From contig NC_087251.1 of NCBI RefSeq assembly GCF_037042905.1, positions 4,466,001 to 4,530,000 of the forward strand: a DNA stretch of 64,000 nt, written 5' to 3'. Origin of the DNA: Lytechinus pictus (Eukaryota). The notes under the pieces were generated by a model, which saw nothing but the letters and a program-made list of their open reading frames with translations, was not told the DNA's origin and searched no databases. Each line of letters starts with the position of its first letter. Position 1 is the stretch's first letter. Shown here piece after piece: positions 4,181 through 34,697 of this stretch. The position numbers and the translations under genes were made by a program.

Positions 4181-5235
4181 TTCTACCCCTCCCATCCCAA
4201 ATAAGAGTAGAAATAATCTAATCAAGAACTTGAAAATCAAAAGCAGCAATTAAGAAGCAAGATTTGATAAATACAGGTCTGAATAGAATTTCACAAGAAA
4301 ATAAAAAGAGAAAAAAAGATGGGTAGGGACGGGGAAGGAATAAAAAAAAAATACACAGAAAAAGAAATCCGAGTTGCGAACCAGGGTCCTCGCACATGAC
4401 AAAACAATGGCCAACGTTTTTGGCCACAGACCATCGCCCTGTCGGGAAGGCATTTTTAAGATATATGAAAGAAAGTCCGCTCGCCGCTGTTTCCTAATAA
4501 TGCTTCGGCAATTCAACTGCAATTTCAGTTATTTCGCGATGGATATTGCCGTGTTTTTTTTGTGGTTCCTGACTTTGCTACTTAATGAAATTTCATAATT
4601 TTTGTTCAGTCATAAAGAAGAATGTCTATGCTTTATATTGATTATAACATTAATGTGACGCAATGTGATTTCTACGTGAAAATATGCTTTGTTTATTCAC
4701 ATATATTTCTTGAAAAAAAAAAATTCTAAGCTAAATATCGGTTACCAAAATACGTTAAATGTGCACTTTTTTTCACTGTTCAGTAAATTCAAACTTTTAT
4801 CTATATAACAAGACCAATCTTAAGAGGAATAAACAATTCTAAGAGCAAAAAACGCTGATTGGAAAGATCGTCTCCAATAGGCTGCTGTCAGCTCAGCTGC
4901 TCACTGCTCATTGTGTGACGTCACTCAGCTGGAGCCCGCAAGAGGACCGGTGGAAGGCAAAAATATGGCATGAAAATAAATCATTTTTGAGAGCTGATTT
5001 CTGCAATCTCTGATCACTATTTTGAAAAGTGAAGTTATATATCTGATCAGTAATACTTCCCCTTTACAATGATGACCACATAAAGTCATTATAAAATACT
5101 TTTGATTCTTCGGATGTATACTTTAAGAATATCACCATTAGATAATTCTTTTGTGTCATGTTAATATCAGGGTCTAGGCTCTGCACTTTACCATTATGGC
5201 ATATTTGGCAATCGCCCAGATCCAGCGTTGTCAAT

Positions 5236-5510
5236 TACCGTGTTTACATGTGATCAGAACGGCTTTTGGTTTATCTTGCACCGCGTTTACACGCTGTTAA
5301 CCTGAAATGACACGCTCACCAACAATGTACGTCATAATAAAGACAACGCTGGATCCGTGCGCTTTGAAGTACGTCATAATGGTAAAGTAAACGAAATGCG
5401 CGCCAATTGCCGATGCAGAATCGGCTTTCTGTTTACACGTAGTAAAAAAGCCGATTCTGCATCGGCTCGCGGTTCTGAACCGCGAGCAGATGCAGCGTGT
5501 AAACACGGTA
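5236..5510 (-). mobile_element. MITE copy 1 (internally deleted), TIR ACCGTGTTTACA, Harbinger-like terminal sequence
   Basis: TACCGTGTTTACATG...GTGTAAACACGGTA; internal sequence is the reverse complement of parts of 5516-5983. Confidence 0.75.
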
Positions 5511-5515
5511 TACAT

Positions 5516-5983
5516 TACCGTGTTTACAGTCATGTGATCGGCTTTGCATCGGCTCGCGACTCTGAACCGCGAGCCGATGCAGCATCGGCTTTTTCATAGC
5601 GTGTAAACGCGATTAACTTGCATCTGCTCTCGGTTCAGAATCGGCAATTTTGCACCACCAAAGTAGTAGGTTCAGAACCGCGAGACCGATGCAGAATCGG
5701 CTTTTTTGCTACGTGTAAACAGAAAGCCGATTCTGCATCGGCAATTGGCGCGTATTTCATTTTACTTTACCATTATGACGTACTTGTAAGCGCACGGATC
5801 CAGCGTTGTCTTTATTATGACGTATATTGTTGGTGCGTGGATTATTTCAGGTTTTTGCCCCAAAAGCCGATTCTGAACCGCGAGCCGATGTAGCGTGTAA
5901 ACGCGGTGCAAGATAAACCCAAAAGCCGATTCTGCATCGGCTCGCGGTTCTGAACCAAAAGCCGATCACATGTAAACACGGTA
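5516..5983 (+). mobile_element. MITE copy 2, same family, opposite orientation
   Basis: TACCGTGTTTACAG...GATCACATGTAAACACGGTA; multiple internal GCCGATTCTGCATCGGC/GGTTCTGAACC palindromic subrepeats; unique core at ~5745-5852. Confidence 0.8.
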
Positions 5984-6088
5984 TCTGACGTAGATTGTTG
6001 GTGCGCGGATCATTATGAAGCGTATTTCTTCATACGACGCATCCTCAAAGGCCCGGATGTGAGAACAGGGAAAAAACAAAGGTAAATT

Positions 6089-7170
6089 TATATAATATTG
6101 ACTGGCCTTGAGGGGAACATCAAATATGTCACCCGCAACGGAATTGGCCCGAGTCTTTAGACGAGGGCAATATGGTTCTTTTAAGGACGTTCCACAGTTA
6201 TATTTGTGCGCATTATGATCTGCGCATAGTTTACACTCTGCGCGCTGACGTCACAATGGATGAACAGGTATTAATTAGCTGCGGGTATGAGCTGATTTTT
6301 CTCGTCTTCTGCACTTTAACTGCAGATCCGATGCGTTATTTCATGAAGCTAAAAAATTGAATTATTCCATGGACCATTCAAAAAAATATTCTCTACAATT
6401 TCAAAATACTTTACTCTGCAGTGCTGCCAAGAATCACGAATATTAGCCCGAGTTTGAATAAATGGTAGAGTGGTTTTGATTTTTTCTTTACATAGATACT
6501 AAGCATTCGGCCCATTTTTGGTGTTTTAAAAAGCACATTTGCTCTAATAAAAATGCTGATAGTTTAAAAACAAGCACATGAACCCCTATTTTTTAATGTT
6601 TCTACCTCTTAGGTATACCTTCCTCTACAACTCTGCAAATTTTGGTGAAAATGACATGGATTTTGAATAAAGTGCAGCATTTATTGTACGTTTGTACATT
6701 GTTACTGAAATTTTACATTTTTCAGATTGGGATTTTGTTATCTTTTACGCCATTTTTAAGAACTGACAGTGCTGTTAAACTTAAAATTGCAAACAAATAG
6801 CACTATTAATAGATTCTTCATTCTAACGATACAATTATTAACTCTCTTGCGAAATTTGATGACTTTTTCATGTATTTTGAATGAGTAATGGAGGTTTAAA
6901 CTCATTGTAGTAATCTTGGGCGGTCTAAAAATGCCAAATTCTTTTGAATGCGCAATTCTTAAGAACATCAATTTGGGTGAACTTTGAAGCTCTATAGCAA
7001 AAAATCAAGCACATGGACCTATGTTAATTTTTGCATATTTCGAATATTAAGGTTCTAAAGTATCTATGTGCAAAGTTTGGTGAAAATGACATGGATTTCA
7101 CTTTAACTGTGGAACGTCCTTAAGGGCGACATATTTGATGTTTCCCGACAGAATAGCTAGTCAATTATTA
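6089..7170. mobile_element. Small palindromic MITE interrupted by a family A element
   Basis: Left arm 6089-6180 starts TATAATATTGACTGGCCTTGAGGGGAACATCAAATATGTCACCC; short right arm 7124-7170 GGGCGACATATTTGATGTTTCCC...GTCAATTATTA. Confidence 0.65.
6185..7119. mobile_element. Complete 935-bp Kolobok-like non-autonomous element (family A)
   Basis: Perfect 16-bp TIR GGACGTTCCACAGTTA/TAACTGTGGAACGTCC; TTAA TSD at 6181-6184 and 7120-7123. Confidence 0.9.
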
Positions 7171-9219: not shown

Positions 9220-9319
9220 CTTGTATAGGTAATAATTTGCGTTGTCTCTGCATGCAAAGTCAATACGCGCATTGAGACCGAGGAAAATACGAACAATATA
9301 CCTATTCCTTCCCGATATC

Positions 9320-33861: not shown

Positions 33862-34697
33862 TCCCTGTTACTACACAAAGGAGGTATGTCTATTATCAGT
33901 AATTGGTCTCTATTTTCTAAAACTACATCGGCTATATATACTCATTTGGTTTACAATTCATCAAAAGTTGGTCTAAACTCTACATGATCTTGGAAATCCA
34001 GTTTTCAAGATAAGAGACGAAGTGTATATCATATATTTTTAGATTTTGTTCCTTTTTTCTCTACATAGACAGCCCCAACCCTCCTTCTTCCCTCTCGAAC
34101 TTTTCTTCAGCAAAAATGGGAACCATAACATATACTGTCAGCAAAAAAAATCATATTATCCCCAGTCTTTAGACAAATTATGGGTCTTTAAAGAAATATT
34201 AATGTTTTCTGAATTTATTTCACCCTTTATTGTTCAACTATATTGATGATTGTGATAATGATAACAACAATGAGAATGATGATGATGATTAATGATAAGA
34301 TAATGTCATATTAAGAATTGCATTTAATTTAAAAAGATGCCCATCATGTAACCTGGAGGATGATTGTATATCCACCCCCTTCCATCCACTGTCTACGCAC
34401 CTGTGAGTAATCAACGGATATTTTTCAATTATACCACTATTTTATTTTGTATTTTGTCTTTAATTAATTTTGCAATTGCTTTATTCATATCTACCTAAGA
34501 TCGTAAGTTAGAAGAAAATAAAACATAAGGAACTAATTAAAGAAAGGTATTGTTAGAGTCAAACTCATGGCGTTTTCTTTCATCCAATGATCGTTACACA
34601 CACCTCATCCCAGACACTCGTTCAATCTATAAAAAAAAAACCCGCATAAAATTGTACTAATAATTCCTAGGCCTATATGTATACCGCGTGAGTACAA

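Follow-up and report, generated by a model that had tools for sequence, protein, structure and literature searches.

Recurrent insertion of a probable Tourist-like MITE at two motifs of a module shared with another repeat in Lytechinus pictus

Target choice by cut-and-paste transposons is poorly understood beyond a few bases, and no mechanism is known for the self-nesting of some MITE families (MITE, miniature inverted-repeat transposable element). In bacteria, IS110 elements encode their own recombinase and a structured bridge RNA, and they reportedly insert only where that RNA pairs. In P-element homing and in tethered integration, DNA that the transposon carries, or a protein bound to it, draws insertions toward genomic copies of that sequence; P-element homing does so on a scale of kilobases around the parent gene and not at one fixed nucleotide position. 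Closer to the case reported here are the PIF/Harbinger transposons and the Tourist-like MITEs. For PIF/Harbinger, a transposase and a Myb-like ORF1 protein that binds the element ends are described as both required (PMC2836001). Tourist-like MITEs are described as leaving TWA or WWW target duplications, TWA most commonly (PMC5172404), and the rice families Castaway and Gaijin as inserting frequently into their own family in independent events (Jiang and Wessler 2001, as cited in PMC5172404). Here, we analyzed a stretch of 64,000 nucleotides from Lytechinus pictus (contig NC_087251.1, positions 4,466,001 to 4,530,000; hereafter the window) in which a repeat, B, is interrupted by members of a young MITE family. 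The two repeats have an 83-bp module in common, and two motifs within that module are a genuine and recurrent hotspot for insertion across the genome (812 Mb, ~35% G+C).

Recurrence was scored genome-wide with a left-junction pattern that runs from a module anchor into an element end (CCAGCGTTGTC, 0-15 nt, TACCGTGTTTACA; ≤2 mismatches), together with a control. The pattern gave 24 matches versus 0 in the control. Twenty-one of the 24 are true module contexts, at 20 loci, one of which (L037) is the window; the other three (L049, L050, and L052) are chance matches outside module contexts. The host is a canonical B copy at the window, L045, L048, and L053, a variant of B at L033, L044, L041, and L051, and the module of another MITE copy at L031, L032, L034/35, L036, L038, L039, L040, L042, L046, L047, and L054; the host at L043 is unclassified. 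Past the insert, the host module resumes in 12 loci. At least eight inserts lie one way and at least six the other, the junction trinucleotides vary (ATT, AAT, ATA, TAT, and TTA), and identity to the consensus ranges from 84% to 100% for inserts and from 72% to 98% for MITE hosts. Each of the four canonical B hosts has a different insert: one holds the 275+468 bp pair, another a copy of 451 bp at 99.8%, a third a variant of 420 bp, and the last a copy in reverse orientation at 94%.

A mirror search for the opposite side of such insertions (element end, 0-12 nt, GACGTA N1-2 TTG) gave 19 matches versus 1 in the control; motif 2 accounts for ~13 of them and motif 1 for 5, and these junctions mark further events beyond the ~20 left-junction loci. 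An element end joined to TGACGTA was found 21 times versus 0 in the control, and the motif-1 left junction in MITE hosts 9 times versus 0. Meanwhile, the 28 nt between the two motifs gave five matches genome-wide, none of them (0/5) in a module. Hence, the junction and between-motif searches place the insertions directly 5' of (A/G)TGACGTA at both motifs and none between them. Within the module, (T)TAT/(A/G)TGACGTA occurs twice, and each copy resembles a half-site of the family's target. Two junctions, L034 and L035 on contig 5, belong to one tandem structure and lie 247 bp apart; the array unit, likewise 247 bp, joins a terminal repeat to MITE positions 66-293, ends at the motif-2 site, and seems to be a derivative that arose by rearrangement at the hotspot.

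The module led to the identity of the host. A genome search with it returned 1092 first-look candidates, of which 40 were scored and 30 fetched. Nine of these 30 module-bearing loci (L020-L024 and L027-L030) lack the terminal repeat and carry B sequence on both sides of the module; they represent a separate repeat, B, with a 558-bp consensus (Bcons). The module is native in B, and MITE-B homology is exactly 83 bp long (B258-340, equivalent to positions 243-325 of the 451-bp MITE consensus, MITE451). In the window, the B match of the flanks extends ~40 bp and ~75 bp beyond the module, the host's motif 2 (TGACGTAG) begins 3 nt past the insert, and the joined flank agrees with the B module consensus at 72 of 85 positions versus 70 of 85 for the resident element's module. 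The flank belongs to a different, module-bearing repeat, and it resembles the interior of the element because the element landed in B, which shares the module.

This likeness was the starting point of an earlier note on the same DNA, which counted 68 of 84 identical positions between flank and element core. Joining the flanks by script and comparing them with the module of the full-length resident element (E2) gave nearly the same figure, 70/85 (82%) or 69/84 without the TA, and the left flank arm alone matches the MITE consensus with a BLAST E value of 3e-7. The note held that the flanks carry no terminal inverted repeats or subrepeats of the MITE, and BLAST indeed shows no MITE sequence beyond the module. 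Its further statement that homology stops outside the core is right for the MITE only; against B, the match continues on both sides (88.5%). BLAST identified the empty site as a truncated copy of B, and the note's own alternative, that the flank is an older copy of this MITE in decay, falls with it, there being no MITE sequence outside the module and B on both sides. The option of an insertion into a related element therefore stands in so far as the flank is repeat B, but not as a one-off, since ~20 loci are hit at the same two spots.

The inserted family is defined by its ends. Exact TACCGTGTTTACA ends number 1517 genome-wide versus 42 for the reversed pattern, and they form 13-nt terminal inverted repeats at both ends of a small, non-coding element with many homogeneous copies. 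The consensus is 451 bp long; the family is young because 14 copies of 451 bp are nearly identical to it, with 1-21 nt of difference (≤8 in 13 of the 14). Among 36 listed end pairs, which include a few that span nested elements, 12 are flanked by identical 3-mers (TTA twice, TAA twice, TAT three times, and ATA, AAG, AGA, AAC, and TCA). Many other pairs agree at two of three bases (TAT/TTT, TGA/TAA, and ACT/ACA). Nested cases set against known host sequence show 3-bp duplications, ATT and ATA. The duplication is thus 3 bp long and A/T-rich (TWA/WWW), as in Tourist-like elements, though imperfect in most pairs; a TA duplication of the Stowaway kind was not found, the duplicated bases being three in number and outside the terminal repeat.

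To describe ordinary target choice, we took an unbiased sample, the first 100 of the 1517 ends in genome order (blind to target; 57 loci). Across its 95 non-redundant flanks, A is found at position -5 in 68, C/T at -4 in 87, and T/C at -7 in 74. Because the half-site YCAY-WWW adjoins the ends in these flanks, the target rule is a palindrome, YCAY-WWW-RTGR, with the consensus CAC-TWA-GTG. An extended palindromic target around the duplication is reportedly a feature of PIF as well. The long end pairs of the sample (L086, 3.7 kb; L075, 1.6 kb) hold no open frame >160 aa. Judged by these sequence features, the family is probably a Tourist-like MITE, moved by a PIF/Harbinger transposase.

We next asked how strong the preference for the module is. 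Counted with a 25-mer at ≤2 mismatches, intact motif-2 sites number 979 versus 21 occupied ones (2.1%), and among B-type modules, 4 of ~262 are occupied. A module anchor adjoins 12 of the 1517 exact ends (~0.8%). Under the target matrix of the family, the site at motif 2 reaches 4.5 bits, against a median of 6.4 bits among 31 true sites; of 62,859 background positions, 1.2% do as well. Scores of the module sites span 4.5-6.7 bits. From these counts and matrix figures, we estimate that only ~0.01-0.02 module events would be expected, so the excess over expectation would be near three orders of magnitude (~thousand-fold). Inside the repeat, the matrix predicts the insertion positions: in the MITE consensus, the top scores fall at 435 and 15, by the terminal repeats, followed by 27 (6.6 bits), 251 (motif 1), 290, and 293 (motif 2). 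An attraction to the repeated TTATGACGTA motif, the second option of the earlier note, fits best, because insertions lie 5' of both motifs, 0/5 lie between them, and the sites are among the best-scoring in the element. In the unbiased sample, no end (0/100) lies in a module; six of 100, at four loci, adjoin MITE sequence and none adjoins B. Two loci considered as module insertions, L081 and L093, were rejected: they lie around MITE position 141 and close to the right-hand end of an older copy.

Outside the module there is a third hotspot, at MITE position 15-17. Here, TACCGTGTTTACA-CTTA-TACCGTGTTTACA was found 29 times genome-wide versus 0 in the control, with the new copy beginning exactly 4 nt past the 13-nt terminal repeat of the resident; among the fetched loci, L076 (301/318), L041, L048, and L054 have this arrangement. 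The site (CAC|TTA) is the top-scoring target inside the element. Insertion into a sister copy may explain this hotspot, insert and host both being young at L076 and L081. The same process does not account for module hits in old MITE hosts or in B.

The features of the window site are collected in Table 1. The stretch 5236-5983, which the earlier note had taken for one MITE, consists of two complete elements, E1 (reversed) and E2, because four exact TACCGTGTTTACA ends lie within it, at 5236(+), 5510(-), 5516(+), and 5983(-); at ≤2 mismatches, the window has seven matches to TACCGTGTTTACA versus a mean of 1.5 in shuffles. BLAST agrees, aligning 5299-5481 of E1 with MITE451 332-150 (91%) and 5431-5510 with MITE451 90-1. 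The internal module and its reverse copy had been correctly described and were recovered as repeat I1; the copy in E1 is 88% like the 451 module, and by BLAST 5313-5388 matches Bcons 333-258 at 93%. The TA that had been read as duplicated belongs to the terminal repeat, as its first and last dinucleotide; what is duplicated is three bases outside it. No target duplication could be rebuilt at the window site (AAT..TAC, CAT..TCT), either as two separate insertions or as one composite. The element is predicted to fold strongly as RNA, as the earlier note proposed for its palindromic subrepeats: the E2 fold reaches -223.9 kcal/mol (z = -15.6), and 0/100 shuffles fold as well. Such folding is as expected for a MITE built of hairpin subrepeats, and an Rfam scan of 5000-6300 gave two matches, both far under their gathering scores, with no family at threshold.

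Table 1. Features at the insertion site, in coordinates of the window
Feature	Position	Strand	Basis
Left host arm, truncated B copy (B221 to ~B307), including left module part 5185-5235	5146..5235	+	BLAST, 5146-5232 = Bcons 221-304, 88.5%, E 3e-26
E1, complete MITE copy with an internal deletion, 275 bp, both 13-bp terminal repeats	5236..5510	-	Exact ends at 5236 and 5510
Module (83 bp) inside E1	~5305..5388	-	Repeat I1, 93 nt, 91% complementary
TACAT spacer between E1 and E2	5511..5515	.	Read from the letters
E2, full-length MITE of older subfamily, 468 bp	5516..5983	+	BLAST = MITE451 1-451, 84.2%, E 1e-145
Module (83 bp) inside E2	5764..5846	+	78/83 identical to B module consensus
Motif 1 (TTATGACGTA) in E2 module	5773..5782	+	Sequence
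Motif 2 in E2 module	5815..5824	+	Sequence
Right host arm, ~B310-412	5984..6089	+	BLAST, 5986-6089 = Bcons 312-412, 88.5%, E 2e-34
5' hairpin module of second B copy, abutting the truncated first copy	6088..6186	+	BLAST = Bcons 3-106, 87.5%

We favor, with moderate confidence, the following account: a young, non-coding Tourist-like MITE finds strong insertion hotspots in both motifs of the 83-bp module that it shares with B, and its machinery prefers the motif-bearing module. Each motif copy is a strong insertion hotspot whether the module sits in B or in another MITE, and the transposase and a Myb-like DNA-binding partner would recognize this module in target DNA. The window contains one old case, a truncated B copy whose motif 2 received two elements. 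An effect of the module can be separated from an effect of being inside a MITE because the same 83 bp occur in two unrelated repeats and are hit at the same two positions and at similar rates. The MITE may have captured the module from B, perhaps through frequent landings there, or it may have kept it as a landing pad that makes harmless targets. Capture by two flanking insertions was considered and dropped, as MITE sequence is found beside the module without a terminal repeat.

If the module attracts the machinery, the family offers a case from nature of an element that brings along a safe harbor of its own; if it does not, we are looking at ordinary nested insertion by a family with a sharp target rule. 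More tentatively, and with a good deal of doubt, we suggest that the module is a portable landing pad with a ~thousand-fold draw beyond the target rule, acting through the Myb-like partner or through homology-assisted tethering, and that it seeds harmless targets and is shared with B. We found no description of a module shared across families in this way, in literature searches that were not aimed at exactly that point.

Several observations weigh against a preference of the machinery for the module. First, the general target rule explains the position of the insertions but not their ~thousand-fold excess, for which some further factor would be needed. Second, B offers a better-scoring predicted site at B101 (GGTCAT-TTA-AGGGCA, 10.7 bits), and the machinery may have a general liking for B or MITE chromatin. 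Third, some junction loci, such as L033 and L044, could be copies of one event. Fourth, all 13 delimited inserts carry the module, and a need for the module in the donor is thus possible. Fifth, perfect 3-bp duplications in just 12 of 36 listed pairs are few for so young a family. Lastly, no autonomous partner or protein was found, and no genome search aimed at transposases was made; for this reason, the superfamily and the binding of a protein to the module are only inferred.

Among the competing explanations, a host factor or chromatin effect survives best, although we consider it rather improbable. A basic leucine zipper (bZIP) factor bound to TGACGTA, which resembles the cAMP-response element, or an open state of the module, would expose the DNA, and the transposon would land at the best local site. 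Such an effect accords with a hotspot that follows the module into two unrelated repeats and with insertion positions that are those predicted by the general target rule. It sits poorly with the distribution of element-end-plus-TGACGTA junctions, at least 14 of 21 of which lie within modules, when base composition leads us to estimate tens of thousands of TGACGTA sites outside them. As most such junctions are in modules despite the many outside sites, the 7-mer alone is insufficient.

Alternatively, a few real events may have been multiplied by composite transposition, gene conversion between modules, or segmental duplication. Multiplication does occur: L034/L035 form one tandem structure, L033 and L044 perhaps go back to one event, having the same host variant and junction, and L058, L060, and L075 have the same MITE-plus-flank combination in another host repeat; duplicated loci are found elsewhere too (L020/L028, L022/L023, and L025/L026). 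As the main cause, however, it is unlikely, given that junction trinucleotides differ, both orientations are present, identities are widely spread (84-100% for inserts, 72-98% for hosts), and four canonical B hosts contain four different inserts.

Guide-like targeting, the first option of the earlier note, supposes that RNA or DNA of the element's module pairs with the target module and directs or tethers integration. In its favor, the hotspot is confined to the only sequence common to MITE and B, occupancy is similar in B and MITE hosts, the module is present in every delimited insert, the element folds strongly, and the excess over the general target rule is without explanation. Nevertheless, 0/100 unbiased ends lie in a module, which fails the note's own expectation that many independent copies match their cores, and ordinary sites obey a short palindromic rule. 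Insertions use two registers, one per repeated motif, and not one, while the third hotspot (29 matches) lies outside the module altogether. Nor does the target track the core of the insert: 451-type inserts are found alike in B-type (L045 and L053), older-type (L032 and L039), and 451-type (L038, L040, and L042) modules, a comparison of low power because module subtypes differ by only ~6-12%. The window flank is nearer to B than to the resident element's module, Rfam gave no family at threshold, and we know of no guide mechanism for cut-and-paste DDE transposons. A guide mechanism is thus unsupported and, in our judgment, very unlikely, with looser homology-assisted tethering kept alive as a weaker form. 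Finally, a single chance insertion, or one into an older, decayed member of the MITE family itself, would suit the age of the window site (E2 is 84% like the consensus) and the lack of a rebuilt duplication there but is scarcely credible, for MITE sequence is absent from the flank outside the module, B is matched on either side, and the same site is hit at ~20 loci versus an expectation far below 1.

Further observations concern B and its surroundings. At L053, B forms head-to-tail tandem units (B446-558, 3-310 [MITE] 308-558, 1-558, 1-165). The first ~150 bp of B are a hairpin module that occurs solo in the window at 1330-1495, 6088-6186, and 34118-34193, and a further piece of B (B403-492) lies at 9227-9318. 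The pairs L020/L028, L022/L023, and L025/L026 have shared flanks over hundreds of bases on different contigs or at distant places, which points to segmental duplication or assembly redundancy. An inverted pair ~1.3 kb apart, CATTGTGTGACGTCAC at 4909-4924 and GCTGACGTCACAATG at 6244-6258, brackets the B/MITE cluster in the window; both members hold TGACGTCA and are similar to motif 1 of the young module (ATTGTGACGTAA), and the pair could mark the termini of a larger element or have arisen by chance.

Other observations concern the MITE family. For the young nested insert at L045, contigs of four public runs gave no joint that skips the 451-bp insert, these contigs being short and piling up on repeats. 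Over L045:1063-1513, one run labelled as another organism (X7) has contigs at least 96% like the MITE, one of which leaves the element end into other sequence, and it has no cover of the B parts; the MITE family seems to be shared with a related species. End-to-start neighbors with 2-7 nt spacers occur at 14 places genome-wide, including 5498-5528 of the window, and among them are runs 73 bp apart on contig 13 that look like tandem arrays of mini-elements. At L058, L060, L075, and L055, mini-elements of 68 bp, hardly more than two terminal repeats, and copies of greater length stand in the same flanks (…GCGCGCTCACTAA | … | …TTTTTGCTGGTGCCCCC); these flanks are either another repeat family that was repeatedly hit or a copied composite.

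How, then, does the family compare with known systems? It resembles Stowaway (Tc1/mariner) MITEs in being small and hairpin-rich with TA at the very ends, but here the TA is part of the terminal repeat, and the duplications, 3 bp long, vary in sequence (AAT, TAT, CAT, TCT, TAA, and TTA). The likeness to IS110 is one of idea only, an element carrying target-matching sequence. Insertions are not confined to guide-matching sequence (0/100 unbiased ends lie in a module, and ~0.8% of exact ends adjoin one) and do not vary with the element's own module (451-type inserts in three module types, at low power); most lie elsewhere, two registers are used, no Rfam RNA family reaches its threshold, and the element is non-coding. 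With P-element homing, it has in common a carried sequence and an insertion bias, but its positions are fixed.

The nearest relatives are PIF/mPIF and the Tourist-like MITEs. The target consensus found here agrees with the 9-bp target of PIF, which is reportedly CWCTTAGWG. Shared features are short terminal repeats (13 bp here), a length of 130-500 bp, a lack of coding capacity, many near-identical copies, and the 3-bp A/T-rich duplications, TWA commonest, described for Tourist-like MITEs (PMC5172404). By contrast, the terminal repeat here matches no nameable family, a limited search found no autonomous partner, only about a third of the listed pairs have perfect duplications, and the element shares with an unrelated repeat a module that is itself a hotspot. 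In behavior, the closest known case is that of rice, where, as the review describes it, some Tourist-like MITEs often insert into their own family. Like these, our family is found within or beside another copy of itself, at 4 of the 57 unbiased loci. Its own hotspots are fixed; unlike Castaway and Gaijin as described there, its hotspot also works in another repeat with which it shares only 83 bp.

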